DNA of 64,000 nucleotides from an uncultured Bacilli bacterium (GTDB taxonomy: Bacteria; Bacillota_I; Bacilli_A; RF39; UBA660), in NCBI GenBank assembly GCA_944358525.1, contig CALVRI010000003.1, positions 4,283 through 68,282 of the forward strand. The letters are read 5' to 3'. A model generated the notes under the pieces. That model searched no databases, was not told the DNA's origin, and saw only the letters and a list, made by a program, of their open reading frames with translations. A program made the position numbers and the translations under genes. Below are positions 2,157 to 47,155 of this stretch, one piece after another (the stretch's first letter is position 1; every line of letters starts with the position of its first letter).

Positions 2157-2231
2157 ATGAATAATTTACAGGTAGTTGTGGATGCTGGTCATCAAGGTAT
2201 CTGTTTAACATGGCAAAAAGATGTTATGTAA
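2157..2231 (+). pseudogene. 5' stub of N-acetylmuramoyl-L-alanine amidase gene, cut off by ICE insertion
   Basis: ATG at 2157 after GGGGTGA. It encodes MNNLQVVVDAGH, then runs into ICE sequence and stops after 12 unrelated codons. The remainder of the gene resumes in frame at 45989. Confidence 0.8.
2184..2192 (+). repeat. attL core (GC-n-GGTCAT shared with right junction)
   Basis: gctGGTCAT at 2184-2192 versus gccGGTCAT at 45986-45994. Host-like sequence lies to the left and ICE sequence to the right. Confidence 0.75.
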
Positions 2232-2384
2232 TTATAGTACTTTTTCATTTAATAAAATAATGCTTGTTTAAAAAGTAATATAAAATAAAAAAATATGATG
2301 TTTAATATTTAAAATTTAAAATGTATTTTGTACTGATTAAATATCAGTTTTTTTGTTTGTAAAAATATATAAAGGAAGGAGGAT

Positions 2385-3218
2385 ATGATTATGTCACAGT
2401 GTAAGATAATTGCAATCGCAAATCAAAAGGGTGGAGTTGGTAAGACTACTACTACATTGAATTTTAGTGTGGCGTTATCTAAAATTGGTAAAAAAGTTTT
2501 ATTAGTAGATGCAGATCCTCAGGGTGATTTGACCACATGTATGGGATATTATGAAACTGATGATATACCGACTATTGCTAATTTAATGATGGATTCAATT
2601 AATGATAAAGAGTTAAATGTTCAAAAGGTTATATTACATCATGAAGAAAACATTGATTTAATACCATCAAATTTGGATTTGTCGGCTGTTTCGTTATCTT
2701 TAGTAAGTGCTATGAGTAGAGAATATATAATGAGAAATTGTTTAAAAGATATAAAAAAACAATATGATTATATTTTAATAGATTGTAACCCTAGTTTAGA
2801 TATGATTACTTTAAATGCATTAGCTTGTGCAGATAAGGTTATTATACCTGTACAAACTCAATATTTGGCTGCAAAAGCGATGGGACAGTTACTTGGAACA
2901 ATTTCAAAAATTAGAAGGCATATAAATCCTGATTTAAATATAGGTGGAATCTTATTAACATTAGTTGATGATAGAACTAAATTATCAAAAGAAACAAAAC
3001 AAGTTTTACAAGAAATATATGGGAGTATAGTAAAATTATATAATACTAAAATCCCATTAGCCGTAAAAGTCGCCGAGTCTAGTAAAGTTGGTAAAAGTAT
3101 TTTTTCCTATGATAAGCGAAGTAAAGTTGCTGAGGCATATATGCAATTCGCAAAGGAGGTAGAAGATGATGAAAAAGCAAGAAGGCAAAATGCACCTACC
3201 CATATTGACAATAGATGA
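2385..3218 (+). CDS. parA: ParA/Soj-family partition ATPase
   Basis: Deviant Walker A KIIAIANQKGGVGKTTTT; DADPQGD; GGAGG RBS 6 nt upstream. Confidence 0.9.
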   Translation: MIMSQCKIIAIANQKGGVGKTTTTLNFSVALSKIGKKVLLVDADPQGDLTTCMGYYETDDIPTIANLMMDSINDKELNVQKVILHHEENIDLIPSNLDLSAVSLSLVSAMSREYIMRNCLKDIKKQYDYILIDCNPSLDMITLNALACADKVIIPVQTQYLAAKAMGQLLGTISKIRRHINPDLNIGGILLTLVDDRTKLSKETKQVLQEIYGSIVKLYNTKIPLAVKVAESSKVGKSIFSYDKRSKVAEAYMQFAKEVEDDEKARRQNAPTHIDNR

Positions 3219-4128
3219 TTTATTTTCTACTCAACAGGAAAGAGATGATTTAAAATTAGAAAAAGTTGTTAATGTTCCTTTATCAGAAATAGATGATTTT
3301 CCTAATCATCCTTTTAAAGTAGTTGATGATGATGAGTTAATTAAAATGTCAATTAGTATTAAAGAAAATGGAATGCTAGTACCTACAATAGTTAGGCTTA
3401 AAGAAGATGGTCGTTATGAAATGATTTCCGGGCATAGACGTAAAAGAGCTAGTGAATTAATAGGATTGGCTGATATTCCGTGCATTGTAAAAGATTTAAC
3501 TGATGATGAGGCTACAATTATTATGGTAGATAGTAATATGTACAGAGAAAAAGTGCTTCCGAGTGAAAGGGCTTTTGCATATAAAATGAAACTTGAAGCG
3601 ATAAAACATCAAGGTAAAAGAAATGATTTAACTTTGCGACCATTTGTCGAGAAGTTAAATAGTGCAGATTTAATTGGAAAAGAATTTGGAGATAGTGGAA
3701 GAAAAGTTCAAAGATATATTAGATTAACTGAACTTATACCAGAATTATTAAATTTTGTTGATAATGAAGCTTTAGGAAATGTACCTAAGATTGCCTTAAG
3801 CCCAGCTGTTGAAATATCTTATTTAACTAAAGAAGAACAATCAATGTTACTAGATTATATTGAATATAACGAAATTACTCCATCATTAAGTCAAGCAATT
3901 CAATTAAAAGATTTAAGTAAGAAAAAACAATTAGATTATGTCACTATTGAAAAAATGTTAGATGTTGAAAAATCAAATCAAATTCAAAAATTAAAAATTA
4001 ATATGAATAAATTGAAAAATATACTTCCACGAAATTTAATTTCTGAAAAGGAAAAAGAAGAGTTTGTAATTAAGGCAGTAGAATATTATTGTAAAAAACA
4101 AAAAGAACGATTTGAAAGTGAAAGATAG
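3166..4128 (+). CDS. parB: ParB/Spo0J-family DNA-binding protein
   Basis: ParB N-terminal box ...EMISGHRRKRA..., followed by an HTH region. AAGGAGG RBS; overlaps the parA end. Confidence 0.85.
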   Translation: MMKKQEGKMHLPILTIDDLFSTQQERDDLKLEKVVNVPLSEIDDFPNHPFKVVDDDELIKMSISIKENGMLVPTIVRLKEDGRYEMISGHRRKRASELIGLADIPCIVKDLTDDEATIIMVDSNMYREKVLPSERAFAYKMKLEAIKHQGKRNDLTLRPFVEKLNSADLIGKEFGDSGRKVQRYIRLTELIPELLNFVDNEALGNVPKIALSPAVEISYLTKEEQSMLLDYIEYNEITPSLSQAIQLKDLSKKKQLDYVTIEKMLDVEKSNQIQKLKINMNKLKNILPRNLISEKEKEEFVIKAVEYYCKKQKERFESER

Positions 4129-4417: not shown

Positions 4418-6004
4418 ATGAAAAAAATACTAGGAATTATTTTGGTACTAATACCAATTTTTTCAGTTGGTTCTGCCAATATAGTAAAAGCAGCTGAAAA
4501 TGATTCACAATTTACTAAACAAGTTATAGATGGGGCTTATTATTACCAAAGAGATAAAGATACTGGAAAAACAATGACTGGTCATGCTAACAAATTTTAT
4601 TTAAATGGTAAATTAGCATACTGTATAGAACCATTAGTGCAAATAACAGATCATACCTATAATTCAACGACTGATTGGAGTGTTGTTGGTCTTACTGATG
4701 AACAAGAGGATTATATTGAGAAGGTAGGATATTTTGGGTATGAATATCCAGGACATCAGACAGATAGGTATTATATGGCTGCTCAGCAATTAATTTGGGA
4801 AAAAGCAAGAAATGTTGAAACTAAATATACTACTGAACGTGGTGGAGGTAGTGAAATAGATTTATCTAAAGAAAAAAACGAAATTTTAAGTTTAGTTAAT
4901 AACTATAATTCTTTACCTAGCTTTGTAAATGATAAAATTGAAGCAAATATGGGTGATGAAATTAGTCTAAATGATACTAATAATGTGCTTAGTCAATTTA
5001 GTGTTGAATATAATGGAAAAAATAAAGTATCAGTTGACAATAATACGTTAAAGATTAAATTTAGTGATAATTTTATTGGAGAAGAAACTATTAAGTTTGT
5101 TAAAAAAAATTATGATAGTCAAGTTAATTTGATTTACTATAAAGCAAGTTCTCAAACGTTGGCTTCTTTAAGAATTAGTAATCCTTTAAATTTCGAACTC
5201 AAAATTAAAGCAAATGGTGGTACTGTTGAAATTAATAAGAAGGGTGAAAAAATTGTTTATTCAGATGGTTCTTACAGATATGAAACTATTGCTTTACCCG
5301 AAGTAGAATTTGCTATTTATGCAAATGAAGATATAGTTGATAGTACAGGTAAACTAGTTTATAAAAAATACGATCTTGTTGGGGCTGTGACAAGTGATAG
5401 TTTAGGCTTTGCAAAATTAGAAGATATGTACTACGGTAAATACTTCTTAATTGAAGGAAAGTCATCACAAGGTAATATGTTGGATAATGAAAAATATTAT
5501 TTTGAAATCTCTAAAAACGATTTGGTAGAAGGTAGTATTATTAAAAAATTAGATATTCAAAACTATTTACCAAAAGGTACGCTAGAGTTTACAAAATTAG
5601 ATATTACTAACGGAAAAGTTATTCCAAATACTGAAATTATGATTTTCACTGAAGATGATAGACTTATTTATCAAGGAATGACTGATGAAAATGGTAAGAT
5701 TGTTATTACAGATTTACTTGCCGGTCAAAAATATTATATAATTGAACGTAACCCAGCAACAGGTTATCAGTTAAGTAACGAAAAGGTTTACTTTGAAATT
5801 AAAGCAAATGGCGAAGTCGTTAAAGCTGAAATGACAAATGAGCAAATTGTGATAGTTAAAGTTCCTGATACTCAAAAAGATCAATCTAGTTTTGGTAATA
5901 TAGCGTCAATTGTTGTTATTGTTGCTGCAATAGGAGTTTTGATTTATGGAGAAGTTAAAAACAGAAAAAATAAATCAAAAAAAGATAAAAAAGAAAAAAA
6001 GTAA
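4418..6004 (+). CDS. surface adhesin with thioester-type domain, Cna-B/prealbumin-like repeats and C-terminal wall-sorting-like signal
   Basis: Signal peptide. KLAYCIEP plus AAQQLIWE resemble the Cys and Gln motifs of thioester (TQXA) domains. The repeated TDENGKIVITDL..GKYY.IE pattern is SpaA/Cna-B-like. The C-terminus is VPDTQ + hydrophobic helix + KNRKNKSKK tail. Confidence 0.65.
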   Translation: MKKILGIILVLIPIFSVGSANIVKAAENDSQFTKQVIDGAYYYQRDKDTGKTMTGHANKFYLNGKLAYCIEPLVQITDHTYNSTTDWSVVGLTDEQEDYIEKVGYFGYEYPGHQTDRYYMAAQQLIWEKARNVETKYTTERGGGSEIDLSKEKNEILSLVNNYNSLPSFVNDKIEANMGDEISLNDTNNVLSQFSVEYNGKNKVSVDNNTLKIKFSDNFIGEETIKFVKKNYDSQVNLIYYKASSQTLASLRISNPLNFELKIKANGGTVEINKKGEKIVYSDGSYRYETIALPEVEFAIYANEDIVDSTGKLVYKKYDLVGAVTSDSLGFAKLEDMYYGKYFLIEGKSSQGNMLDNEKYYFEISKNDLVEGSIIKKLDIQNYLPKGTLEFTKLDITNGKVIPNTEIMIFTEDDRLIYQGMTDENGKIVITDLLAGQKYYIIERNPATGYQLSNEKVYFEIKANGEVVKAEMTNEQIVIVKVPDTQKDQSSFGNIASIVVIVAAIGVLIYGEVKNRKNKSKKDKKEKK

Positions 6005-6599
6005 AAATCCAAGAGTTCTAATTTTTTTAGGACTCTTTTTACTTATTATTGGTATTGGAATTTATTGCTATAATTTGTTTGAATATTCAAAACCGTTAGT
6101 AGAAGATAAGGAACTAATTGATGAGTTTTTTAATGAAGAAACAATAAATAATAAACAGATACAAACTTCTGTAAAACAATCTACAAGTAATAAATATATT
6201 GCGATTCTAGAAATCCCTTCAATATCTTTAAAAACAGGATTGGTTGATTTTAAATTTTCTGGAAACAATGTTGATAAACGAGTTCAAATTATAACTGGCT
6301 CACAAATGCCAAATGTTGAAAATGGAAATTTAATTTTAGCAGCTCACTCAGGAACTAGTAATATATCTTATTTTAAGAATTTATATAAAATGCAAGAAGG
6401 TAATGAGATTTATATTTATTATTCTGGAACTAAATATGTTTATGTGTTGAATAATATTTATGATGTTAATAAAACAGGTGAAGTAGAGATAAAACGAGAT
6501 CCTAATCAGAATGCTTTGACTTTAATAACTTGTACTCGAAATAGTAATACAAAACAAACGGTTTATATAGCATATTTAAAAAACAAGGAACAGTATTAA
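5946..6599 (+). CDS. sortase (transpeptidase)
   Basis: N-terminal TM anchor, LILAAHSG (His) and ALTLITCT (TLxTC catalytic Cys). Directly downstream of the adhesin and overlapping it. Confidence 0.8.
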   Translation: MEKLKTEKINQKKIKKKKSKNPRVLIFLGLFLLIIGIGIYCYNLFEYSKPLVEDKELIDEFFNEETINNKQIQTSVKQSTSNKYIAILEIPSISLKTGLVDFKFSGNNVDKRVQIITGSQMPNVENGNLILAAHSGTSNISYFKNLYKMQEGNEIYIYYSGTKYVYVLNNIYDVNKTGEVEIKRDPNQNALTLITCTRNSNTKQTVYIAYLKNKEQY

Positions 6600-6613: not shown

Positions 6614-7099
6614 ATGATTAAACAATATGATGAATTTTCTAAATTAGGTCAAAAGGATATGAGCAAGCGAATTAGTGAGATGACATATTTATATGTGAAT
6701 CCTGAAACAAATAGACCAACTGTTGTTCCAGCAAAACATTATGATCAAATATTGGGTCAAATAAAAGAAGAATTAATTTTACCTATGACTTTAAGAAATT
6801 TTCTAATTACAATGTATACTCAGTTAAAAGCATTATATGATGAAGAGCCTAAATTATTTCAAGAAGCCTTGCTTTGTTTAGAGTTGGGATTGAAACCTAA
6901 AGATTTAAAGATTAGCGAACAGATTGCATTACAGATGACTTCTAAAATGTTAGAAGAAAATAGAAAAGGGAAAAAATTTCATTTACTAGATTCTAGCATT
7001 ATAGATTTTTTTGATGAAATAAAAGATAATCCAGATGTTCATGCTCAAATTTTAAGAGAAAGTAATTCTACGAAAAGAGATGTTGATTTTGAACGATAA
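6614..7099 (+). CDS. hypothetical protein
   Basis: 161-aa ORF with a GGAGG RBS. No recognisable motif. Confidence 0.45.
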   Translation: MIKQYDEFSKLGQKDMSKRISEMTYLYVNPETNRPTVVPAKHYDQILGQIKEELILPMTLRNFLITMYTQLKALYDEEPKLFQEALLCLELGLKPKDLKISEQIALQMTSKMLEENRKGKKFHLLDSSIIDFFDEIKDNPDVHAQILRESNSTKRDVDFER

Positions 7100-7463
7100 A
7101 ATTAAGGCTCTTGTTGTAGAACCTTATAAAGAACCGTATGAGGTTTTGTTAGATAATTCTTTAAAATCTAGACAAAAAATTGTTGGTGGATTAATTGAAT
7201 ATTGTTATTTATTGGATGATGATTCTGTGGCTTTAATTTGTAACGATGAAGGTAAAATTTTTGGATTACCTTTTAACCGGGAGATTGGTTATGATGTAAT
7301 ATGTGGTAACTTTATTATTGTTGGAGATAATGGTTCGGGTGAGGATTTGTCACTTACAGATGAACAAATAAACAAATATAAAGAGCGATTTGGAAAGAAA
7401 TCTATTAGAAAAACGGAAATAGTTATTGAAAAATTATTTAACAAGAAAAATAGAGAGAGGTGA
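7080..7463 (+). CDS. DUF3846-like protein common in Firmicute conjugative elements
   Basis: IKALVVEPYKEPYEV...VGGLIEY...ALICNDEGK..GLPFNR resembles the DUF3846 consensus. Confidence 0.55.
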   Translation: MLILNDKIKALVVEPYKEPYEVLLDNSLKSRQKIVGGLIEYCYLLDDDSVALICNDEGKIFGLPFNREIGYDVICGNFIIVGDNGSGEDLSLTDEQINKYKERFGKKSIRKTEIVIEKLFNKKNRER

Positions 7464-7467
7464 TGAA

Positions 7468-7800
7468 ATGTTAAATCAAATAGTTTTAGTTGGGAGAATA
7501 GTTAATGATTTAGAATTACATGAAACAGAAAGTGGTAAAAGTTTTTGCAATTTAACAATTGGTGTACCAAGACCTTATAAGAATGACAAAGGGGAATATG
7601 ATACCGATTTTATACAATGTAAATTGTGGCAAGGAATTGCTAGAAACACTAGTGAATATTGCAAAAAAGGAGATTTGGTTGGAATTAAAGGCAGATTGCA
7701 AACGATTAAAAAAAATAATCAATTTATTCCTGAAGTTGTTGCAGAGAAGATGACTTTTTTATCTAATAGATCAAAAGATATTAATGAAGAAGTTAGATAA
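7468..7800 (+). CDS. ssb: single-stranded DNA-binding protein (short, no acidic tail)
   Basis: MLNQIVLVGRIVNDLELHETESGKSFCNLTIGVPRPYKN...DFIQCKLWQGIARN...KGDLVGIKGRLQ is the OB-fold SSB pattern. The ATG at 7468 follows GAGAGGTG. Confidence 0.8.
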   Translation: MLNQIVLVGRIVNDLELHETESGKSFCNLTIGVPRPYKNDKGEYDTDFIQCKLWQGIARNTSEYCKKGDLVGIKGRLQTIKKNNQFIPEVVAEKMTFLSNRSKDINEEVR

Positions 7801-7887
7801 TTATGTCAAGGGTGTAAAAAAAATAATTTGCACATTATTCATGACAAGGTATTTATTATATAATGTGACTAGAAAGAAGGTTACATT

Positions 7888-8199
7888 ATGCAAAAAAGTT
7901 TTTTGAAAGATTATATGATGAAAAATTGTTTTGATAGTTGTTTTAATGTGTTTGTATCTGATATATCGTGTGATTTAAAAAAGTCTAATAAACAATATAG
8001 TAATTTATTGGAAGAAGAAGAAAATATTTTAAATAAATTTCCTAAATTGAGAAAAATTATAGAGGATGGTGATATTTTATCTTTGAATAAAGATGAAGTA
8101 AAAAATCTAATTCGTTTATTGAATATATTGCAAAATCAAAATCATATTGTGATGAAAGAAATATTTATTAAAGGGCTTACGGAAAGTTTAAGGCTTTAG
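7888..8199 (+). CDS. hypothetical protein
   Basis: 103-aa ORF with an AGAAGG RBS. No motif. Confidence 0.4.
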   Translation: MQKSFLKDYMMKNCFDSCFNVFVSDISCDLKKSNKQYSNLLEEEENILNKFPKLRKIIEDGDILSLNKDEVKNLIRLLNILQNQNHIVMKEIFIKGLTESLRL

Positions 8200-8240
8200 T
8201 TATAGGAAAACTAAAACTTTTTTATATGGAGGTGTATGTT

Positions 8241-8444
8241 ATGAAAAAGTATAAAATAGAAATAGAAGAAATTTTACAAAAAGTTTTTGATATTGAAGCA
8301 GAGTCATTAGATGAGGCATTAAATATTGCCGAAGATAAATATCGTGAAGGTGAATTTGAACTATCTCCTGATACTATTAAAGAAACTAATTTTAGACCGT
8401 ACGAAGAATTAATAAAAAATAAACTGTCTGAAAAAGAAAGATAA
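8241..8444 (+). CDS. DpnD/PcfM-like small protein
   Basis: MKKYKIEIEEILQKVFDIEAESLDEALNIAEDKYREGEFEL matches my recollection of the DpnD/PcfM family. GGAGGTG RBS. Confidence 0.5.
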   Translation: MKKYKIEIEEILQKVFDIEAESLDEALNIAEDKYREGEFELSPDTIKETNFRPYEELIKNKLSEKER

Positions 8445-8452
8445 TTGTTTAT

Positions 8453-9394
8453 ATGGCTTATTATTCTTCTGAATTAACAAACAAAGTAAAACAAATTGAT
8501 TTACTAACATATTTAAAAAATTTTGAACCAGAAGAATTAGTAACTATTTGTAGAGGTAATTATTCTACTAAAACACATGACAGTTTGAAGATTTCCAATG
8601 GTATGTGGTATTGGTTTTCAAAAAATATTGGTGGTAAAAGTGCTTTAGATTATTTAATTAAAGTAAGGGGCTATTCCTTTTTAGAAGCTATGCAAATTTT
8701 ATTAGATAAGGTAAAAAGTAATAAAAATTATAAAGTATATAATAACGAAAACTCTGTTCCTAAAGTTTTTAGTTTACCAATTAAGGCTGAAAAAAATAAT
8801 AGAGCAATAGCATATTTATTAAAAAGAGGGATTGATTTGTCTATCATTGATGAGTGCATAAGACTTAATTTAATTTATCAAGATATTAATAAGAACGTTG
8901 TTTTTGTTGGTTATGATGAAAATAATAAAGTTAAGTATGCAATGTGTAGAGGAACTGGTAATATAAGATTTATGAAGGAAGTTAGTGGCAGTAGTAAAGA
9001 ATATTCATTCAGATTAGCTTTGAATGAAGAAAATACTGATGTACATTTGTTTGAAAGTGCGATTGATTTGTTATCATACGCAACATTATTAAAGATGAAG
9101 CATAAAGATTGGCATAATTATAATCTTTTGTCCTTTGGTGGAATATATATTCCGAATAATCTTGAATATAGCAGATTACCATTACCGTTGCTGAATTATT
9201 TAAAACACCATCCTAATGTTAAAAAAATAATCATGCATTTAGATAATGATGAAACAGGAAGATTAGCTTCTCAAGCTATATATAATGTTTTATCTAAAGG
9301 ATTTGAGGTCATTGATCAACCTGTTACGATTGGTAAAGATGTCAACGATTTTTTGTGTTATTTAAAAAAGAATTTAAAGAAAGATAGTAGGTAA
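8453..9394 (+). CDS. DUF3991/Toprim-domain protein (primase-like)
   Basis: The C-terminal Toprim signature has FESAIDLLSY (Glu) and HLDNDETG (DxD). The N-terminal part resembles zinc-finger-less primase-like proteins of ICEs. Confidence 0.7.
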   Translation: MAYYSSELTNKVKQIDLLTYLKNFEPEELVTICRGNYSTKTHDSLKISNGMWYWFSKNIGGKSALDYLIKVRGYSFLEAMQILLDKVKSNKNYKVYNNENSVPKVFSLPIKAEKNNRAIAYLLKRGIDLSIIDECIRLNLIYQDINKNVVFVGYDENNKVKYAMCRGTGNIRFMKEVSGSSKEYSFRLALNEENTDVHLFESAIDLLSYATLLKMKHKDWHNYNLLSFGGIYIPNNLEYSRLPLPLLNYLKHHPNVKKIIMHLDNDETGRLASQAIYNVLSKGFEVIDQPVTIGKDVNDFLCYLKKNLKKDSR

Positions 9395-10205: not shown

Positions 10206-10559
10206 ATGTTTGAAATAGGAGATGATGAAGTGAGAAAAAGAAATATAAAAAAACAAGTATGGCTTAATAGAGAAGAAGCTAGTCAATTGAAAAAGAAATC
10301 AAAAAAAGTTGGCTTAAATGAAGCAACTTTAATTAGAAATTTAATTCTAGGTTTTGAGCCTAAAGAAAAGCCTGACGAAAGGTTCTATGAAGCAATTAAG
10401 GAATTAAGACATATTGGTAATAATTTAAATCAGATAGCAAAAAAAGCTAACTATTTAAATTATGTTGATAGTAGTAAGTATGGAGAAGAAGTTAATAAAT
10501 TAAATAGCTTTATTATAAGAATAAAGAAGGAATTTTTAATTGGGGAGAAATGTGATTAA
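10206..10559 (+). CDS. mobC: MobC-family relaxosome accessory protein
   Basis: RKR..KQVWLNREEASQLKKKSKKVGLNEATLIRNLI (RHH-like) and LRHIGNNLNQIAKKAN (MobC signature). The true start may be the in-frame GTG at 10230, after AGGAGA. Confidence 0.75.
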   Translation: MFEIGDDEVRKRNIKKQVWLNREEASQLKKKSKKVGLNEATLIRNLILGFEPKEKPDERFYEAIKELRHIGNNLNQIAKKANYLNYVDSSKYGEEVNKLNSFIIRIKKEFLIGEKCD

Positions 10560-10621
10560 GGGTAGACTGTGTGAAATTTACTTGATATAATGTTATTAAG
10601 TAGTAAGGAGTTGTTTTTACA

Positions 10622-11212
10622 ATGCTTTCAGAAAATGATTATAAAAAATATTTTCCTGTCTTTTTATATATGATGGGTGAGAGTAATGCAGTAGCACTTT
10701 ATTTTGCGACACCTGTTGTTTATGATTTTAAAATAACAAGAGGAGATTCAAAGATTACAAGACTGGCTAATTTAGTTGATAAAAATATTTCTCCACAAAT
10801 GATTTGCATTAAAATACTGCATAGATTGTCAATGATGTATGCTTATCAAATTTCATACATGGCAGAACATCATTTAGATTTTAATAATATTAAAATAGAT
10901 TCTACTAAAAAATATTCATTATTATTTTCAATTGGTACTGAAAATATTAATGTGGTTAATTATAAAGGATTTGGCTTTTTGTGTTCCAATACTAAAGCAT
11001 TTGCATGGGTTTTAGGAAATTCGGTTGATACGTTATTTAATTATGTTAGAACTTTAGCGACCACTGATAATAACTATGGTTATTTAAAAATAATTGTTGA
11101 TTTTTGGAATAGAAATAAATCTACAAATCCTGATCAAGCTGTTCTTGAATTTATAAAGAATAATGAGGATTTTTATAAAAATGAAATTGCAAATTCTAGC
11201 CAATTTATGTAA
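10622..11212 (+). CDS. hypothetical protein inserted between mobC and relaxase
   Basis: 196-aa ORF with an AAGGAG RBS. No motif recognised. Confidence 0.45.
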   Translation: MLSENDYKKYFPVFLYMMGESNAVALYFATPVVYDFKITRGDSKITRLANLVDKNISPQMICIKILHRLSMMYAYQISYMAEHHLDFNNIKIDSTKKYSLLFSIGTENINVVNYKGFGFLCSNTKAFAWVLGNSVDTLFNYVRTLATTDNNYGYLKIIVDFWNRNKSTNPDQAVLEFIKNNEDFYKNEIANSSQFM

Positions 11213-11249
11213 TAAGAATATAATTTAGTTTATTTAGATTATTAATATG

Positions 11250-11278
11250 TCAACAACAGATGTTGTTGATTTTTTTTG
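11250..11278 (+). terminator. rho-independent terminator
   Basis: caacaac-agat-gttgttg hairpin followed by a T8 run. It lies inside the tracked 5' extension of the relaxase ORF, which argues for the ATG at 11293. Confidence 0.55.
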
Positions 11279-11292
11279 TTAGAAGGTGGTAT

Positions 11293-16245: not shown

Positions 16246-16256
16246 TAATCGATTAA

Positions 16257-27824: not shown

Positions 27825-27830
27825 AGGTAG

Positions 27831-33628: not shown

Positions 33629-33637
33629 TAATTTGAT

Positions 33638-34396: not shown

Positions 34397-34400
34397 TAGC

Positions 34401-35387: not shown

Positions 35388-35397
35388 GAGGTATAAT

Positions 35398-36852: not shown

Positions 36853-36862
36853 GTGAAATATT

Positions 36863-37630: not shown

Positions 37631-37645
37631 AAGGGAGATAATAAA

Positions 37646-38371: not shown

Positions 38372-38422
38372 GGATAGGTATTAAATTTATGTTATAATAA
38401 AAATAATGGGGGGTATGACTTT

Positions 38423-39115
38423 ATGGAAGATATGCATATACACGTTAGAAACGCAGTTGATGATTATTCAAAATTAAAAATGTATATTGAACGGTGCATT
38501 GAGCTGGGATTAGATAGGGTGTTATTTGTGGAACATGGCCCAAGATTATCTGAACATCACTCTGCCAGGTTGGATACACCAGAAAAAATAACTCAATTTA
38601 AATCAAATATTGAACGAGCTAGAAAAGAATATCCAAATTTAAAAATATTTTATGGGATAGAATTAGATTTTTCTTATGATAAAGCATTTAATGATAGTAA
38701 TAATAAATTAACTAATATTGGATTTGATTATATAATATCTGCAATACATCATTATAGATTTACTAATGGTAGAGATTATTTAAAAGCAATTATACAAATG
38801 ATTGATACTTGTAAATTTGATATTATTGGGCATATGCTTTTAAAATATGATTGGAAAGATTGTTTAGATTTAATTGATATTGTATTGAATAAAGCCAAAG
38901 AAAAAGGAATTATTATTGAAATTAATACTAGTGATAGATCTAGATGGAAAGATGATGTGTTGGAGTATATGCTAGAGAAAATGAATGAGTATGGAATTAC
39001 TTATACAATAGCTTCTGACGCTCATTCTGTCGAAGAGGTAGGTCACATGATAAAAGAGACAACTGAAAAAGTAGAGCATTTTAATTTTAAAAAATCTTGT
39101 TTAATCAAAAAATAA
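38423..39115 (+). CDS. PHP-domain (histidinol-phosphatase-like) phosphoesterase
   Basis: N-terminal DMHIHV and C-terminal IASDAHS. Confidence 0.6.
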   Translation: MEDMHIHVRNAVDDYSKLKMYIERCIELGLDRVLFVEHGPRLSEHHSARLDTPEKITQFKSNIERARKEYPNLKIFYGIELDFSYDKAFNDSNNKLTNIGFDYIISAIHHYRFTNGRDYLKAIIQMIDTCKFDIIGHMLLKYDWKDCLDLIDIVLNKAKEKGIIIEINTSDRSRWKDDVLEYMLEKMNEYGITYTIASDAHSVEEVGHMIKETTEKVEHFNFKKSCLIKK

Positions 39116-39145
39116 TTGTTTTATTTATGTAAGGAGGAAAAAGAT

Positions 39146-40180
39146 ATGGTTGAAAAGACAGAATTCACTGAAGATACAATAAAATCAGAAGTTGAGAAAC
39201 ATTACGGAATGAAAGTTAATGATATTAAGGTAGTAAATGGTGGTAGTGCTAATATATACAAATTAACAGCCGATAATGGTGAAAAATATATTTTGAAAGA
39301 ATTTCAATCAAAATTTAGCGGCAAAACTATTCTTAAAGAAATTAATATTATTAATTTCTTAAGAAATAAAGGATTATCAGTACCAGAATATGTAACATGT
39401 TTAGATGGAAAACAATATTTTGAATACAATGATAAAACAGTAATTATTCAAAAGTTTATTGAAGGACATACCCAAGGTAATTATAGCGGAAGTGTAGAGC
39501 AAATGTTAGAATCTGCAAAATATTTAGGTATTATTGTTAATGCATTAGAGGATTATCCTTATGAGGATATGTTTGGTTGTAATATTGAGAAATATACATC
39601 AGATGAAATCATTGATAAGAGTATTGCAAAACACGAAAATTTAATACCGTTAGCTGAAAAAGACGAAGTACATGGTTCTGAGATAGTAAAAGACTTAAAA
39701 GACAAAATAGAAATGTTAAAAGAAGTCAAACGAGATGGTACTTTTAAAAAAGCTACTAATGTAACAATAAAGAAAACACATGGTGATTATAATGTATTAC
39801 AGTTTATTTATGATGACAAGGGTAAAATAAAAGCTATTATTGACTTTGTTAATGCTGGTGAAATGCCAATAGTATGGGAGATTGCTAGATCATATAATTA
39901 TATAGACAAAGATTGTAAAAACGGTGAATTTAACATTGATCATTTAGTTATGTATGTAAAAGAATATTTAAAATACTCAAAACTTAACAAAGATGATTTA
40001 AAATATTTACCTTATGTATATTTAGTGCAAGTATTATCAAGTACATACGGTTATAAAGAATATTTAAAAAATGGTAATCTTGATTTGCTTCGTTTTGGAA
40101 AAGAAAGAACGAATATATGCCGTTATTTAATGAAAAATGCTAAAACAATATCAGAAAGATTATTGGAAATCGACTTGTGA
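39146..40180 (+). CDS. APH/choline-kinase-family phosphotransferase
   Basis: Brenner motif THGDYNVLQF and IIDFVNAG. The ATG at 39146 follows AAGGAGG. Confidence 0.7.
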   Translation: MVEKTEFTEDTIKSEVEKHYGMKVNDIKVVNGGSANIYKLTADNGEKYILKEFQSKFSGKTILKEINIINFLRNKGLSVPEYVTCLDGKQYFEYNDKTVIIQKFIEGHTQGNYSGSVEQMLESAKYLGIIVNALEDYPYEDMFGCNIEKYTSDEIIDKSIAKHENLIPLAEKDEVHGSEIVKDLKDKIEMLKEVKRDGTFKKATNVTIKKTHGDYNVLQFIYDDKGKIKAIIDFVNAGEMPIVWEIARSYNYIDKDCKNGEFNIDHLVMYVKEYLKYSKLNKDDLKYLPYVYLVQVLSSTYGYKEYLKNGNLDLLRFGKERTNICRYLMKNAKTISERLLEIDL

Positions 40181-40183
40181 TTT

Positions 40184-41182
40184 ATGAATGCTAATAATGA
40201 AATCTTAATTTCTATTATAGTCACGGTTTATAATAATGAACAATATATAAAAAAATGTTTAGAAACAATTATTCCTCAACTCAATTCAAAAATTGAGTTG
40301 ATTATTGTTGATGATGGTTCTTCTGATTCCACTATAAATATTTGTAATGAAATAATAAAAGGTACAAGGAATATTACAATTGTTTTAAATGAACATAATG
40401 GATTATCTAATTCTCGTAATACTGGTATAAAAAAGTCTAGGGGTAAATATATTGTATTTGTCGATGGTGATGATTGGATTGATAAATCATATTTGAAATA
40501 TTTAGAAGAAATAATTAACAACAATCATTATGACGTTATTTTAATTAATACTACAAAATATTTTGAAGGTGAAGGTAAATATCTTGTTGAAAATTTTAAT
40601 TTTTCTGATTTAGATAAACATCCGTCCAAAGCTACAGAAAAAAAATTTATTTATAATAATATTTGTGGTAGAGCATGGAGATTAATAACACGACGACAAT
40701 TTTTACTTGATAACAAATTATTTTTTACTTATGGAATTTTGCATGAAGATGAAGAGTGGGTTACTAAAGTTTTAAATTTATATAATTCTATATTTTATAG
40801 CCCTAAAATAAGATATTTTTATCGAAAACATAATAATTCTATCATGTCCTCTAAATCTTTTAAAAATTATAATGATTTATTGTCTGTTGCTATAAAATTA
40901 TTTGATTTTAGTCATAACAAAATTAATTATAAAAATTATACTCAATATGTAGTTTTTAGATGTATTAGAAATAGTTATGGTAATTATAATAAGTTTAATA
41001 ATGCTGAAAAATCATTGTTAGATTCATGGTATATTAATCATAAAATAATTTTTTTATATGGAATTAAATATAAATTTTTATTAATGATATTATATTTAAT
41101 TTTTGGTTATAAAAACGGTATCCCATTATATAAGAATTATTTTAAAACATTAAATAAAAGACATGATAAATGGATGGTTTAA
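40184..41182 (+). CDS. glycosyltransferase family 2
   Basis: ISIIVTVYNNEQYIKKCLETI, VDDGSSDST and FVDGDDW. Confidence 0.8.
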   Translation: MNANNEILISIIVTVYNNEQYIKKCLETIIPQLNSKIELIIVDDGSSDSTINICNEIIKGTRNITIVLNEHNGLSNSRNTGIKKSRGKYIVFVDGDDWIDKSYLKYLEEIINNNHYDVILINTTKYFEGEGKYLVENFNFSDLDKHPSKATEKKFIYNNICGRAWRLITRRQFLLDNKLFFTYGILHEDEEWVTKVLNLYNSIFYSPKIRYFYRKHNNSIMSSKSFKNYNDLLSVAIKLFDFSHNKINYKNYTQYVVFRCIRNSYGNYNKFNNAEKSLLDSWYINHKIIFLYGIKYKFLLMILYLIFGYKNGIPLYKNYFKTLNKRHDKWMV

Positions 41183-41236: not shown

Positions 41237-42739
41237 ATGAGATATTTAGGAAATTGTGTGATATTATTTATTATATCATTAGTAATGATTTTCCCTGTAA
41301 ATGTTGCCGCACGTCCTGGTTGTTGCTCTTGGCATGGTGGTGAAAGTGGATGTAGTGGCAATAAAACAGTTTGTGCTGATGGGACTATTTCTTCATGTCC
41401 ATGTGATGGAACAAGTTCTAGTTCTTCGTATGAATCTTCTTCGAACAATAGTTATTCTAGTAGTGAGGATAATAATGGTAGTTCAACATTAATAATTTGT
41501 ATAATACTTATAGGTGGATTTATTCTTTTTGCATATATTAATGATTGGTGGGAAAAATCGAAGAAAGAAAAAGCAAAAAGAGAAGAAGAACGGAAACATT
41601 TAGAACGGCAAAAAATCGAAGAGCAGAAAATAGAAAAGGCACAAGATTTAAAAAGAAGTATTATTAATGGTGAAAATATTAAAATATTATTACAAAACGT
41701 TGATCTACAAATTTTGAACAGACTGACAAGTGATGATGTAGTAGAAATTATAAATATAAATATTTTAAATAAAACAGATATTAAACTTTTTATTAATAAA
41801 TTGATTGAAGCGGATGGTTATTATACTTCTATTTTTGAAGAAATATGTGAGCATTTATGTAGTACAAATTTATTGTCACAACAAGAAGAGTTGTATAATC
41901 GTCAACGCTTTGTATTAGAATATATTTTTAAAAGTATTAGTGATGACTATCAAAAAATTTTTATGAAACTATTAAAGAATAAAGAAACTGCTTTTTTGAA
42001 GAAAATATTGCAGGAAAAATTAAAATGTAAATTTGAGTTTAGTTATGAAGAAACACTAAAGTTATATAACATTTTGTGTAATATCAATGATTTAGAGTTA
42101 GTAAAGTTAATTTCAACAAGTAATAATGTTGTATATAAATATATTTATGCTTTTGAAAAAGACTTAGAAACTAGAAATTACAAAAACATAAAAATATATT
42201 GTATTTTGTTTCAACAAGATATATATTTTGATCAATATGTTATAACACATATTTTTGATTTGTTGACCAAATTTCGAGATATTAACCTAGTGAAAGCTTA
42301 TTTGAATGAATGTAATGATATCAATAGCTTTTTACAAAAATATGGAGTTCAATTAATTTATTTATCAATCAGAAGATTATGGATTGATATAGTTGAATAC
42401 ATTTTGGCAAATTATCAAGGCATAAATGTAAATGTAATAATTGATGGAGGAACCCCTTTAATTTATGCCTGTTATAAAAAAAGTTATAGAATTGTAAAAG
42501 CCTTGTTAGACTATGGGGCTGATGTAAATTTTAAAGATTCAAAAAATAATTGTGCATTAGTATGTGCCTGTGAATCTAAAAATTTAAAAATTTGCAAGAT
42601 ATTAGTCGAACATGGTGCTACTTTATATAATAATGAACAAAATGAGGCATTAGAAAAAGCACTAAAGAAACGTGATATTTATAGATTACCATCTGTTTAT
42701 ATTTATGATATTTATAGGAAAAGCAAAAGAAAAAATTAA
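41237..42739 (+). CDS. membrane protein with extracellular Cys-rich module, Ser-rich linker, TM helix and cytoplasmic ankyrin repeats
   Basis: Signal peptide, RPGCCSWHGGESGCSGNKTVCADGTISSCPCDG, a poly-Ser region, a TM helix, a KE-rich coiled coil, and C-terminal GGTPLIYACYKKSYRIVKALLDYGADVNFKD...NCALVCACESKNLKICKILVEHGA (two or more ANK repeats). Confidence 0.6.
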   Translation: MRYLGNCVILFIISLVMIFPVNVAARPGCCSWHGGESGCSGNKTVCADGTISSCPCDGTSSSSSYESSSNNSYSSSEDNNGSSTLIICIILIGGFILFAYINDWWEKSKKEKAKREEERKHLERQKIEEQKIEKAQDLKRSIINGENIKILLQNVDLQILNRLTSDDVVEIININILNKTDIKLFINKLIEADGYYTSIFEEICEHLCSTNLLSQQEELYNRQRFVLEYIFKSISDDYQKIFMKLLKNKETAFLKKILQEKLKCKFEFSYEETLKLYNILCNINDLELVKLISTSNNVVYKYIYAFEKDLETRNYKNIKIYCILFQQDIYFDQYVITHIFDLLTKFRDINLVKAYLNECNDINSFLQKYGVQLIYLSIRRLWIDIVEYILANYQGINVNVIIDGGTPLIYACYKKSYRIVKALLDYGADVNFKDSKNNCALVCACESKNLKICKILVEHGATLYNNEQNEALEKALKKRDIYRLPSVYIYDIYRKSKRKN

Positions 42740-43073: not shown

Positions 43074-43559
43074 ATGAAAGAGCGACCAAAAAGAAGAAGG
43101 AAGAAAGATAATCCTTATATTTTAAATTATAATGATAATAGTAAAATTTATACTGTTTCTTTCAAGGATGTGAAAGGCAATATACAAATAGTAGAAATTA
43201 ATAAAGAAATTTATGATTGTCTAGATAAATTTGAATTAAATGATTTATCCGAAATGAATGAGTTTGATAGGCATATTGAACATTCCTATACATACGAAAA
43301 TAAAATCAATGATCGAGCATTTATTAAAACAGAAAGTGTAGAAGATATTGTGGAAAATAAAATTATCAGTGATAAATTAAAGAAAGCTATTGATGAATTA
43401 TCTGTAATTCAAAGGAAAAGAATTAAAATGTATTATTTTGAAGGATTATCACAGAAAGAAATAGCTGAAGTTGAAGGAGTGTCTTTAAGAGCAGTTCAGT
43501 ATACTTTAAACGAGGCTATTTCTGAATTAAGAAAAATTTTAAAAAATTATAAAAATTAA
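43074..43559 (+). CDS. sigma-70 region-4-type HTH regulator (Tn916 Orf7-like position)
   Basis: LSVIQRKRIKMYYFEGLSQKEIAEVEGVSLRAVQYTLNEAISELRKIL is a sigma region 4/ECF-like HTH. Confidence 0.65.
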   Translation: MKERPKRRRKKDNPYILNYNDNSKIYTVSFKDVKGNIQIVEINKEIYDCLDKFELNDLSEMNEFDRHIEHSYTYENKINDRAFIKTESVEDIVENKIISDKLKKAIDELSVIQRKRIKMYYFEGLSQKEIAEVEGVSLRAVQYTLNEAISELRKILKNYKN

Positions 43560-43898: not shown

Positions 43899-44099
43899 AT
43901 GAAAGAATATTTGGTATCAATAAAAAGAATTCAAAAAATCAATTTAATTGTTAGTGAAAAAACTTCAAAAAAAGCATTGAATAAAGTGATTCGTTTTATA
44001 GATGATTGTAGAAAGAACAATTTAGATTTTGAACGTTTATTTGATGATGAAGTTAAATTTGAGTATCACGTTAAAAAAGTTTCAAAAATCGGAAATTAA
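43899..44099 (+). CDS. hypothetical 66-aa protein
   Basis: GAAAGGA RBS. No motif. Lies upstream of the recombinase. Confidence 0.4.
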   Translation: MKEYLVSIKRIQKINLIVSEKTSKKALNKVIRFIDDCRKNNLDFERLFDDEVKFEYHVKKVSKIGN

Positions 44100-44137
44100 A
44101 AAAATTTAGTTCATATAGTTTAGAAGGGGGGAATATT

Positions 44138-44266
44138 TTGAATCAACATATAAATGTAATTGTTAAAGATAATATTTCAGAAGATGTGAATGACGAAAAA
44201 TTAATTGTGGAATTATTCAATAAAAAATTGCTTAAAGTAATAATGAAAATTGAAAAAAATAATTAA
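44138..44266 (+). CDS. possible 42-aa ORF (TTG start), not in track
   Basis: AAGGGGGG lies 6-7 nt upstream of the TTG. The product is acidic and helical. It is a speculative recombination directionality factor candidate. Confidence 0.25.
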   Translation: MNQHINVIVKDNISEDVNDEKLIVELFNKKLLKVIMKIEKNN

Positions 44267-44350: not shown

Positions 44351-45964
44351 ATGAAAGAAAGAGTAGGAATTTATTGTCGTTTATCTGATGAAGATAGAAA
44401 TAAACGTATTAAAACCGATGATAGTGATTCGATTGCTAATCAAAAAAGTATGTTATTAAAATACGCATTGAAACAAAATTGGGAAGTTATAAATGTTTAT
44501 AGTGATGATGATTATTCTGGTGCAGATATTAATAGACCAGCATTTAATAGAATGATTAATGATTGCAAAAATGGTGTTATAAACATTGTTCTTTGCAAAA
44601 CACAGTCTAGATTCTCTAGAGATATGGAAATTGTGGAGAAATACATTCACAATAAATTTATCGAATGGGGTGTTCGTTTTGTTAGTATTGTTGATAATGC
44701 GGATACAAATGTTCACGGTAATAAAAAGTCTAGACAAATTAATGGACTTGTAAATGAATGGTATTTAGAAGATTTATCTGATAATATTAGATCATCGCTT
44801 ATGAATAAACGTGATGATGGATTATTTATGGGTAGTTTTGCTCCATATGGATATGTTAAAGATCCTCAAAATAAAAATAAACTTATTATTGATCCAGTTG
44901 CGGCTGGTGTAGTGGCAAAAATTTTTGAATTGTTTAAATCTGGTATGGGTTATCATAAAATCGCAATGTACTTAAATAATGATAATATTCCAACACCTAG
45001 CATTTACAAAAAGAATAATGGAAGTAAGTACAAATGTCGACATACTAGAGTTGGAACTTTACAAACAAGATGGAGCAATGATACGGTTTCAAAATTATTA
45101 AGAAATCCTGTTTATGCAGGACATTTGGTTCAAGGTAAGAAAACTTATGTTAGTTATAAGAATCATAAAACTTTAATTAAGCCTAAATCTGAATGGAGTG
45201 TTTGCTACAATACACATGAGCCTATTATTGATAAAGAAACATGGGATTTTGTTCAAAACAAGTTTAAATCTAGAGTGGGGACTTGTAAACAAACCAGGTG
45301 TGTTTATATGCTTAGTCAAAAAGTTTATTGTAAAGAATGTAAAAGAATTTTTGTTCGTCAATTGTGCCATACTAAGGATGGTAAAACTCCATATATGAAA
45401 TGTAAGAGTAGAAGAACAGCAGCATTTGTTTGTGACAATAAGTATGCTATTAGATGTGATGTTTTGGAAAAAATTATTATTGATAAACTCAATCAGCAAC
45501 TTGATAAATATTATAGTCTTTCAGAACTTGAAAAGCAGTATTTGCTACAAAAAGATTCATTGGATAATGAAAATGGTAGCAAATTAAAAAATTTATCAGC
45601 AGAGGTTGATAAAGTTAAGGCAGAAATAAATGAAAAAAGGTGTTATTATTCAACTTTATATGAAGATAAATTAAAAGGAATAATATCAGAAAATGATTTT
45701 ATTATGTTTAGAGATAAATTTAATCAAGAATGCGAGGAAAAAGAAAAAAGATTAGCTGCTTTAGAAGAGCAAATCCTTGAAATATCTAATAAAAAAATAG
45801 ATGTTGATAACAGTATTAAAGTTTTTGAAAAATATAAGCATATTACTGAGTTAACTAAAGAAATTGTTGATGAATTTATTGATTGTATTTGGATTGGAAA
45901 AGTTGATGAAAAAACTGGAGTAAGAGATGTTGAAATTGAAATGAACATTATTAAACTAGTCTAA
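44351..45964 (+). CDS. large serine recombinase
   Basis: N-terminal resolvase domain VGIYCRLSDEDR (catalytic Ser region) and CKTQSRFSRD. A recombinase domain and Cys-rich zinc-ribbon region (CKECKR...CKSRR..C) follow, then a C-terminal coiled coil. It ends 24 nt from the ICE junction. Confidence 0.9.
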   Translation: MKERVGIYCRLSDEDRNKRIKTDDSDSIANQKSMLLKYALKQNWEVINVYSDDDYSGADINRPAFNRMINDCKNGVINIVLCKTQSRFSRDMEIVEKYIHNKFIEWGVRFVSIVDNADTNVHGNKKSRQINGLVNEWYLEDLSDNIRSSLMNKRDDGLFMGSFAPYGYVKDPQNKNKLIIDPVAAGVVAKIFELFKSGMGYHKIAMYLNNDNIPTPSIYKKNNGSKYKCRHTRVGTLQTRWSNDTVSKLLRNPVYAGHLVQGKKTYVSYKNHKTLIKPKSEWSVCYNTHEPIIDKETWDFVQNKFKSRVGTCKQTRCVYMLSQKVYCKECKRIFVRQLCHTKDGKTPYMKCKSRRTAAFVCDNKYAIRCDVLEKIIIDKLNQQLDKYYSLSELEKQYLLQKDSLDNENGSKLKNLSAEVDKVKAEINEKRCYYSTLYEDKLKGIISENDFIMFRDKFNQECEEKEKRLAALEEQILEISNKKIDVDNSIKVFEKYKHITELTKEIVDEFIDCIWIGKVDEKTGVRDVEIEMNIIKLV

Positions 45965-45985
45965 CTGCTCCGTGTTATAAAGAAA

Positions 45986-45994
45986 GCCGGTCAT
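45986..45994 (+). repeat. attR core (GC-n-GGTCAT shared with left junction)
   Basis: gccGGTCAT. From GGT (45989) onward the amidase reading frame resumes. Confidence 0.75.
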
Positions 45995-47155
45995 GGAGGA
46001 ACTGATCCTGGGGCTGTTAGTAGTTCTGGAGTACAAGAAAAAGATTTAACTTTAATGATAGCTCAGTATATGTATGAAGAATTTCAAAAAAGAGGAGTTC
46101 CAGTTACTTTAATTAGAAGTACTGATGAGACTATTTCACCAACAGATAGAGTAAATAGAGTGCTTGCGGCATATGGGGATAATCCTAATGTAGTTGTGAT
46201 TTCGAATCATATTAATGCAGCTGGATCTGGAATACAGGGGGCTGAAGGGGCTGAGGTTATATATGCTTTAAGAGATAATAGTGATTTAGCTTCTAATATT
46301 TTAACAGCTTTAGGTAATGCTGGACAAAAGATGAGAAAATTTTATCAAAGAAGACTTCCAAGTGATACATCTAAAGACTATTATTTTATGCATAGAAATA
46401 CTGGAAGTAATACTCATCCAGTTATAGTTGAATATGGTTTTATTGATAATCCAGAGGATTTAGCTAAAATACAAAATAACTATAAAGAATATGTTGATGC
46501 GGTTGTCGATGCAGTAATTGCGACTTATGAGGGAGAGACAATTCCATCTTTACCTGAAAGTGGTAATTATTATGTAGTACAAAGTGGAGATAGTTTATGG
46601 AAGATAGCCAATAAATATGGAATTACAGTTGATGAGCTTAAGAGTTTAAATGGTTTAACTAGTAATAATTTAAGTGTTGGACAGATTTTAGAAGTACCTG
46701 GTGGTTCTAGTAGTGGAACTTATACAGTAAAATCTGGAGATAGTTTATGGAAGATAGCTAATCAATATGGGTTAACAGTAGCTGAACTTAAAAATTTAAA
46801 TGGATTAACAAGTGATAATTTGAGTATAGGTCAGGTTTTAAAAATAAGTAATTCATCTAGTTCAAATAATTCTAATACTTATACAGTAAAAGCTGGAGAT
46901 AGTTTGTGGAATATTGCTAATAAATATGGAATTACAGTAAGTGAACTAAAAAATTTAAATGGTTTAACGAGTGATAATTTGAGTATAGGACAGATTTTAA
47001 AGGTTCCAAATGGCTTTAATACATATACAGTTAAAAGTGGAGACAGTTTATGGAGTATTGCAAATAGATATGGAATAACAGTTAATGAACTAAAAAATTT
47101 AAATGGTTTAACTAGTAATACTTTAATGATTGGTCAAGTTTTAAACTTACCATAA
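45989..47155 (+). pseudogene. 3' portion of N-acetylmuramoyl-L-alanine amidase (Amidase_3 domain + four LysM repeats), separated from its start by the ICE
   Basis: In frame with the tracked ORF 46055-47155. It reads GHGGTDPGAVSSSGVQEKDLTL..., then NHINA, EYGF, and four Y.V..GDSLW.IAN.YG.TV.ELK.LNGLTS..L..GQ.L units. Confidence 0.85.

Follow-up and report, generated by a model that had tools for sequence, protein, structure and literature searches.

The window analyzed here, a 64,000-nucleotide stretch from contig C3 of a 1.3-Mb, 81-contig metagenome-assembled genome (MAG) of an uncultured Bacilli bacterium, carries a gene for an Amidase_3/LysM hydrolase in two pieces. The locus raises the questions of what the DNA between the pieces is, why it lies exactly where it does, and what becomes of the gene. 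The intervening DNA is very probably a 43.8-kb integrative conjugative element (ICE) of the Gram-positive type IV secretion kind (2192–45993, forward strand; 43,802 bp; 25.8% GC, compared with 27.8% in the genome), integrated at a His codon by its own large serine recombinase (LSR), a TnpX/TndX-like enzyme with a DUF4368 domain. An LSR-integrated ICE is a known kind of element; what is new is a target in a catalytic codon that is shared by the whole recombinase family.

The split amidase gene and the crossover dinucleotide

The 5′ piece of the gene (2157–2191, forward strand) encodes MNNLQVVVDAG and supplies the CA of His12. The first-pass annotation had read the stub at 2157–2192 as MNNLQVVVDAGH, in agreement with its codons (ATG AAT AAT TTA CAG GTA GTT GTG GAT GCT GGT CAT). 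In the integrated state, this frame enters element DNA and meets a stop at 2229–2231, giving a 24-aa peptide. The 3′ piece (45992–47155, forward strand) runs from His12 to the stop over 387 codons and contains the rest of the Amidase_3 domain and four LysM domains. As annotated, the frame from 45989 (GGT CAT GGA GGA ACT GAT CCT; GHGGTDPGAV...) is open through to 47155, and the hexamer GGTCAT is present at both junctions (2187–2192 and 45989–45994). In silico deletion of 2193–45994 restores, as had been predicted, a single open reading frame (ORF) of 398 aa with an Amidase_3 domain at residues 6–186 (Pfam, 108 bits) followed by the four LysM domains. Positions 1–172 of the 174 in the PF01520 profile are covered in the joined product, giving a complete Amidase_3 domain that includes the GHGG motif.

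The GHGG motif of the joined amidase aligns to the ..IDPGHGG.. of the Clostridioides difficile Cwp6 and 4RN7 amidases. The insertion lies inside the GH codons of this motif, in line with the first-pass annotation, which had placed it within the GHGG codons. The split His corresponds to His49 of CwlD, a residue that binds zinc (PMC8496864). This correspondence and the alignment to solved Amidase_3 structures identify the split codon as that of a predicted zinc ligand. The tracked 366-aa ORF (46055–47155) begins at Met33 and therefore lacks both His12 and Glu27. No in-frame ATG, GTG, or TTG is found between the LSR stop (45962–45964) and the His codon, and the gene is for this reason broken as long as the element is in place. 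The earlier statement that the host gene is inactive while the ICE is integrated thus follows from the sequence.

The hexamer had defined the element ends to within 6 bp. That location is borne out, and the comparison of five attL/attR pairs, together with the dyad of attP, now narrows the crossover to 2 bp, the CA at 2190–2191 and 45992–45993, which forms the first two bases of the His codon. On the forward strand, attL (2168–2213) consists of the B arm (2168–2189), the crossover CA, and the P′ arm (2192–2213, TCAAGGTATCTGTTTAACATGG); attR (45970–46015) consists of the P arm (45970–45991, CCGTGTTATAAAGAAAGCCGGT), the CA, and the B′ arm (45994–46015). The corresponding attL and attR junctions are GCTGGA-CA-TCAACG and GCCGGT-CA-TGGAGG in genome G012, GCAGGA-CA-TCCAGA and GGCTGGA-CA-TGGAAT in G041, GCTGGG-CA-TCAAGG and CTCGGA-CA-TGGTGT in G042, and GCAGGA-CA-CCAATG and ACTCGC-CA-TGGTGG in G044. 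In G012 (GGA/GGT) and G042 (GGG/GGA), attL and attR already diverge at the base immediately 5′ of CA, and CA is the sole sequence common to the two sites in G044.

The reconstructed attP sites are dyad-symmetric with CA at the exact center, and their arms match at 13–18 of 22 positions, compared with 6.7 ± 2.2 matches at random window positions (P(≥14) = 0.0018). The recognized attP is about 46 bp long. Judging from these comparisons, the enzyme has the 2-bp crossover centered in dyad-symmetric att sites that marks its LSR subgroup. Because CA is non-palindromic, every copy has a single orientation, with the LSR gene beside the amidase 3′ piece and co-directional with it.

The possibility that the junctions are an assembly artifact was ruled out by independent metagenome contigs that cross attL (run X2, 1582–2592) and attR (runs X8, 45868–45999, and X26, 45581–45995), and by the complete HiFi genome of another species, G012, which has both junctions. 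The runs containing the window are mostly chicken-gut metagenomes, and the relatives are deposited under the designation of uncultured gut 'Bacilli'. In relatives, the stub and the 3′ ORF belong to a single gene instead of two independent ones: the target gene is covered from residue 1 in 19 of 24 same-genus genomes (tblastn), and eight of the 19, checked at the sequence level, have the uninterrupted ..GAT GCT GGN CAY GGN GG.. (..DAGHGG..).

Contigs with the predicted empty site (attB) were found in two runs. In X8, the window's own flanks are joined (TTTACAGGTAGTTGTGGATGCT+GGTCATGGAGG..) at a depth of 44.9, versus 4.7 for the attR contig. In X25, the site reads ATGAATAATTTACAGGTAGTTGTGGATGCT+GGTCATGG.., and the element depth in the run is 0; the 'RNA-Seq' runs X25–X27 carry a metagenomic label and may be DNA. 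These contigs show that a precise empty allele exists in nature. The earlier claim of scarless restoration is therefore upheld by the in silico joining and the empty-site contigs, though not by an actual excision event, since no attP circle was observed.

A 180-nt contig of a chicken-gut metatranscriptome run (X30) matches the LysM region at 46539–46718 with zero mismatches. This match hints at transcription in vivo, either of the amidase gene or of its 3′ piece.

The recombinase and its target motif

The LSR gene (44351–45964, forward strand) encodes 537 aa and ends, as first described, 24 nt from the right GGTCAT. The protein has Resolvase (residues 7–157), Recombinase (183–308), Zn ribbon (320–381), and DUF4368 (477–530) domains; PF00239, PF07508, and PF13408 score above their cut-offs, and the C-terminal PF14287 reaches 34.3 bits versus a cut-off of 25. 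The N-terminus (..GIYCRLSDED..) contains the Arg-x-Ser typical of the catalytic serine. The best PDB match is the catalytic domain of TnpX, and the domain set including DUF4368 is the same as in TnpX (Tn4451/Tn4453) and TndX (Tn5397). TnpX and TndX also use a 2-bp crossover, and both carry out insertion and excision without a separate directionality factor. Their dinucleotide is GA and their target choice is relaxed, whereas the window enzyme has a CA core and one defined amidase motif, which is reused across paralogous genes.

A scan of the genome collection for this LSR gave 36 loci. In all relatives with LSR identity of at least 61%, the LSR gene stops about 25 nt short of the CAY-GGN-GGN in an Amidase_3 gene. 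A maximum-likelihood tree groups the 11 LSRs so arranged in one clade (support 99/98); this amidase motif is the site of all 11 and also of two more copies from metagenomes. The LSRs compared are under strong purifying selection, with ratios of nonsynonymous to synonymous substitution (dN/dS) of about 0.06–0.11.

Two kinds of target alternate within the clade, LysM-amidase genes and short genes scoring as CwlD. By themselves, the 3′ pieces of the short sister targets reach 184–215 bits on the CwlD equivalog TIGR02883 (cut-off 221.6), and in four genomes (G041, G042, G046, and G047) the split gene is the sole cwlD-like gene found. The identification as cwlD, which holds for these sister elements, was rejected for the window target, as the latter scores only 82 bits. 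The window genome has two further Amidase_3 genes (on C17 and C14) in which the motif is unoccupied, one of which is its own intact cwlD-like gene elsewhere (C17:85–636, 188.5 bits; GGATGCCGGT-CA-TGGTGGTGCG). Since both LysM-amidase genes and cwlD are targeted within one clade, the enzyme follows the motif and not the gene. Because the protein constrains the motif, many hosts and paralogous amidase genes have the site in nearly unchanged form, and this constraint explains why related LSRs are found in either a CwlC-like LysM-amidase gene or cwlD.

More distant LSR lineages also occupy this His codon, in two genomes of the same genus (G002 and G011) and in two rumen Clostridia (L037 and L046). 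The site is occupied in at least four of the 25 genomes of the genus. At the two same-genus loci (L058, G002:C24; L059, G011:C28), the codon holds a different element, with P arms ending in ..TTCCGATACCCCGA-CA and ..TTCGGTACTAGGA-CA, respectively. The G002 LSR is about 44% identical to that of the window and lies about 560 nt upstream of the junction, with small genes between. Locus L045, a rearranged remnant, was set aside as not interpretable. It has an inverted ankyrin gene and a truncated C-terminus of an LSR (167 aa), and its P arm and CA are joined to non-amidase DNA (TCCGGCATCTATAAC..) that loosely resembles a P′ arm.

A second break affects this LysM-amidase gene about 70 codons downstream, directly after ISNH(I/L)NAGG (L021, L023, L024, L064, and L065); three genomes have a second element in this gene. 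In G048 (L064, G048:C12:1–19500), the second insert is about 14.9 kb long and carries type I restriction-modification genes, and the amidase gene is in three pieces. This insert has its own, very distant serine recombinase of 541 aa (L064 16505–18130), whose gene stops 40 nt short of the right junction. The core AGGTGG is shared, and TAATCACAT (codons S-N-H) is present in the two attP arms as well as in the left arm of attB; in Amidase_3, these codons include that of the third zinc-ligand His.

The combination of DUF4368 and a single motif should be compared with the survey of Durrant et al. 2022, in which DUF4368 occurs in 63% of the multi-targeting clade and in 0.73% of site-specific LSRs. 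Here, by contrast, the DUF4368 enzyme keeps to a single motif, which is found in several genes. It resembles the conserved-site LSR families of the same study (for example, those at the Mg-chelatase/comM-type gene and the prolyl isomerase site), in which diverged LSRs converge on one coding-sequence site, but differs from them in that the same motif is used also in different paralogues. Amidase_3 or other amidase targets are not mentioned in the main text of Durrant et al. 2022 or in its available supplements. In the literature searched, no paper combining cwlD and a serine recombinase was found, and an LSR group that always lands on this His codon is apparently absent.

Gene content and recent transfer of the element

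The first-pass annotation of the insert as an ICE is confirmed by its genes: a MobC/NikA protein, a PF03432 relaxase, a VirD4-type coupling protein (T4SS-DNA_transf/TraG-D_C), PrgI, a VirB4-like P-loop ATPase together with pore genes, a CHAP protein, ParAB, and the LSR at the right end. The att junctions are defined, and the empty site occurs in relatives. All conjugation and recombination ORFs of the window copy are open and full length, and this copy is apparently intact.

All genes described below are on the forward strand unless noted. The left end carries a partition module (2385–4128) of ParA (2385–3218) and a ParB-like protein (3166–4128), followed by a pair (4418–6599) encoding a surface adhesin with TED (thioester) and SpaA folds (4418–6004) and a sortase (5946–6599). 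A DNA-processing group (7080–9394) consists of DUF3846 (7080–7463), SSB (7426–7800), DUF6664 (7888–8199), and a DUF3991-Toprim primase-like protein (8453–9394). The relaxosome genes (10206–13351) encode the NikA/MobC accessory protein (10206–10559), the MobA/VirD2-type relaxase (11260–12609), and a DUF3801 protein (12587–13351). The type IV secretion module (14130–21781) begins with the VirD4/TraG coupling protein (14130–15974), a TrbC-like protein (15928–16245), and a VirB6-like protein (16257–17093), and continues with PrgI (17691–18062), the VirB4-type ATPase (18019–20364), and the CHAP peptidoglycan hydrolase (20357–21781). A helix-turn-helix regulator of the XRE type (22165–22407, reverse strand) is divergent from four unknown ORFs at 22517–24427.

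The cargo is an operon of about 17 kb for sugar and acyl tailoring (24543–41182). Among its products are a UDP-glucose dehydrogenase, GT2 and GT1 glycosyltransferases, an APH-like kinase, an AMP-binding enzyme (acyl-AMP ligase), a hexapeptide acyltransferase, alpha/beta hydrolases, a HAD enzyme, and a PHP enzyme. No obvious exporter is present among the genes of this operon, which probably serves the modification of a cell-surface glycan. A membrane protein with C-terminal ankyrin repeats (41237–42739) and a sigma-70 region-4 protein, a putative regulator of the element (43074–43559), follow.

Two small ORFs (43899–44266), of 66 aa (43899–44099) and 42 aa (44138–44266), lie directly upstream of the LSR gene. 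Their position is conserved across the LSR clade (the window, L018–L026, and L034), and neither has a Pfam match; they are candidates for a directionality or regulatory factor. The end of the second one, ..C-Q-x-stop, is conserved not only as protein but also as DNA (TTGTCAA), which may be the −35 box of a promoter. Between the sigma-like gene and the small ORFs sits a pemK RNA motif (RF02913, 43769–43845; 52.4 bits versus a gathering score of 34.8). A MazF/PemK-like toxin gene occupies the corresponding position in the related element of about 10 kb in G044.

The element resembles CTn2, CTn5/Tn6103, and CTn7 of C. difficile, as far as these are described in the available part of Brouwer et al. 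2011 (PMC3158075): they are low-GC Gram-positive ICEs with a single LSR at one end, flanked by very short repeats (2–15 bp), one copy of which stays in the empty target. Circle excision and the regenerated target were shown for them by PCR (PMC3158075). The window element differs in its target, as an amidase active-site codon is absent from the targets named in that part of the source, and in its cargo and host; these distinctions are drawn from the published descriptions.

Recent movement is indicated by the copy in G012, which occupies the same site in a different species (G012:C1:574874–585016; L013–L017 and L026) and is 10,142 bp long. It retains the left ~70 bp and the right 7.6 kb of the window ICE. 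In place of the segment equivalent to window 2260–38344, it has an IS110-family transposase fragment together with an IS30-like transposase. The genes for conjugation are gone, as is most of the cargo, and the LSR, the sigma-like gene, and part of the cargo are kept. The shared element genes are 97–100% identical at the nucleotide level (GT2, 100%; APH, 99.9%; LSR, 97.2%), whereas the chromosomal genes on both sides are 81–92% identical, with synonymous divergence (dS) of 0.2–1.1. This contrast indicates that the element reached both species recently and independently, at the same dinucleotide, and that the transfer genes of the G012 derivative were lost after landing there. It also lends indirect support to conjugative transfer. 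An ancient insertion is not what the window/G012 comparison shows, since it points to recent horizontal transfer; the other pairs are saturated at synonymous sites. Identity between the ankyrin membrane protein and its counterpart in G012 is only 76% (dS 0.61), though the adjoining genes are 99.6–100% identical, which points to a swapped or fast-evolving allele within an otherwise identical segment.

Other copies are also about 10 kb long and non-conjugative. That of G044 consists of ParAB, two ABC transporters, the MazF-like toxin, a small ORF, and the LSR, and parA is frameshifted in G041 and G042. The small non-conjugative derivatives in G012, G042, and G044 keep an intact LSR and att sites.

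Excision, sporulation, and the meaning of the insertion

The observations can be combined into the following model. The LSR would recognize the dyad-symmetric attP of about 46 bp and an attB located in the codons ..V-D-A-G-H-G-G-T-D-P-G.. of an Amidase_3 gene, and would exchange strands at the CA of the His codon, whose non-palindromic sequence would fix the orientation. Integration leaves a 12-codon stub and a start-less 3′ piece, in which Met33, the only downstream in-frame start, would give a product without two zinc ligands. Conservative excision by the LSR, possibly working with one of the two conserved small ORFs, would return a scar-free gene and release a circle for transfer by the relaxase and the type IV secretion system. 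The anatomy, junctions, empty sites, family-wide target, and recent spread between species are shown, whereas we infer how the enzyme exchanges strands, what the small ORFs do, and that the element still excises and conjugates today.

Several points weigh against this account. The crossover dinucleotide was deduced from sequence comparisons, not biochemistry. No oriT was located in the element, and several of its ORFs match no recognizable family. No attP contig was found in four runs followed at attL, nor a loose end carrying the P arm, and a scan of metagenome contigs with the P arm returned no attP but only two more attR junctions in orthologous amidase genes. The data are assembler contigs and not raw reads, so that rare excision products would escape view. 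Polymorphism among strains, and not excision, may account for the empty sites; the flanks in X8 are about 10-fold more abundant than the element.

Some of these points would also be expected if the element were a fixed, no longer mobile island in a dispensable 'safe harbor' amidase and the empty-site strains had never received it. The undetected attP junction and the rarity or absence of the element in X8 and X25, where the flanks are abundant, fit such an island, as do the decayed copies (G012 with its IS110/IS30 transposases, and G041 and G042 with the parA frameshift) and the second element in the same gene. Nevertheless, the open, full-length conjugation and recombination ORFs of the window copy, the strong purifying selection on the LSR, and the near-identical element DNA between flanks that differ by 8–19%, a sign of very recent mobility, make a fixed island improbable. 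A hybrid amidase, translated by coupling to or readthrough from the LSR gene with its N-terminal strand replaced, was also considered, as the LSR stop (TAA) is in frame with the amidase 3′ part and is the single stop between them. Furthermore, the P arm, identical to the B arm at 11 of 22 bases, encodes LLRVIKKAGH, a mimic of LQVVVDAGH, and in the relative L051 the codon after the LSR stop is TTG. The window copy, however, has neither an ATG, GTG, or TTG nor a Shine–Dalgarno sequence there, and other clade members have a stop four codons before the His or a different frame. The mimicry is to be expected anyway because one recombinase binds both arms, and the eight in-frame codons (LLRVIKKA) resembling the native N-terminal strand are probably a by-product of this arm similarity. 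Expression as a hybrid is thus very improbable.

A further explanation adds to the ICE reading rather than replacing it: the ICE may also act as a sporulation-gene intervening element, as do SPbeta in spsM and skin in sigK. The LSR would then excise the element in the terminally differentiated mother cell and rebuild the amidase there, and the forespore chromosome would keep the element. A non-sporulating host was ruled out, as Spo0A_C scores above cut-off in the window genome (G000) and in 13 of the 15 genus members searched, and an uninterrupted sigma-K-type gene reaches 295.9 bits, just below the cut-off of 298.65; the host accordingly has the marks of an endospore former. The target amidase has no signal peptide, begins directly with the amidase strand, and has wall-binding repeats. 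This is also the layout of CwlC of Bacillus subtilis. In that species, cwlC is switched on late in the mother cell, as the last step, and serves spore release (PMC517825).

In an alignment of 10 species, a single block upstream of the target gene is conserved, GTAAC-N16-CATATnTTA, which is followed by a ribosome-binding site. In the window, this footprint spans 2111–2140 on the forward strand, with GTAAC (AC at 2114–2115), a 16-nt spacer, and CATATTTTA (2132–2140), and the Shine–Dalgarno-like AGGGGTGA lies at 2145–2152. The sigma-K/sigma-E promoter pattern of B. subtilis is AC-N16/17-CATAnnnTA. By this B. subtilis consensus, the target gene has a putative promoter of the sigma-K/sigma-E type, and the footprint and the CwlC-like architecture are the sequence features that suggest a mother-cell sporulation gene. 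The convergent neighbor of the target gene (47173–48228, reverse strand) encodes a PdaA-like polysaccharide deacetylase (best NCBIfam match spore_pdaA, 195.9 bits, cut-off 298). The loss of cwlD, the gene that sister LSRs split in four genomes where it is the sole copy, causes severe germination defects (PMC8496864). The retention of intact LSR genes and att sites in the small non-conjugative derivatives is also in line with a developmental function.

The known intervening elements comprise skin in sigK, SPbeta in spsM, vfbin in spoVFB, vrin in spoVR, and gin in gerE (PMC4191935, PMC5595907, and PMC5025042); amidase genes are not named as targets in these reports. The window element resembles this class in that an LSR-bearing element splits a gene of a spore former that is probably expressed in the mother cell, precise excision rebuilds the ORF, and reduced derivatives keeping only the recombinase end exist. 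It differs in that members of the class are prophages, prophage remnants, or a mini-element, none of them conjugative, whereas the window element is of the conjugative type judging from its genes. Excision during sporulation has been demonstrated for the class, while its timing in the present case is conjecture. No recognizable sigma-E/K-type promoter was found in the AT-rich DNA upstream of the LSR gene or of the two small ORFs, where the conserved blocks, TTGTCAA and T(T/G)CACA..TGTAATAT, are sigma-A-like. Moreover, the G012 copy is a recent horizontal arrival and not one retained anciently, and the LysM-amidase may simply be dispensable. A role in sporulation is therefore plausible but less likely than not.

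For the ICE reading itself, the window yields an attB/attP pair that is new and exactly mapped, in a group of which most members are uncultured. The wide host range and the reuse in paralogous genes can be understood because the 2-bp core lies in a codon that does not drift (His is always CAY). The demonstration of a motif-specific DUF4368 recombinase refines the view of DUF4368 as a marker of 'multi-targeting' enzymes. The nearly identical complete ICE and IS-decayed 10-kb derivative in two species are direct evidence for the change from an ICE to a recombinase-only element, so that the window adds both a full conjugative member of the family and the ICE-to-remnant step. On the practical side, in many gut MAGs such amidase genes will wrongly be annotated as truncated or missing.

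We tentatively raise the idea that in these gut spore formers with small genomes, two mother-cell amidase genes, the CwlC-like LysM-amidase gene with its sigma-K-type promoter and cwlD, are dedicated landing pads, and that a conjugative element serves as a developmental gene switch. Several LSR lineages would then recombine within the zinc-ligand His codon, and elements ranging from the ICE down to 10-kb remnants might, on this speculative view, be cut out in the sporulating mother cell, where the enzyme would be rebuilt, and inherited by the spore. If excision is timed to sporulation, the skin/SPbeta paradigm would extend to conjugative elements and to cell-wall amidases, including CwlD, which is needed for germination. 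The skin/SPbeta class would thereby gain its first conjugative member, along with a new pair of target genes, and the element would show how mini-elements arise from ICEs by deletion, with the G012 copy as a snapshot of that process.

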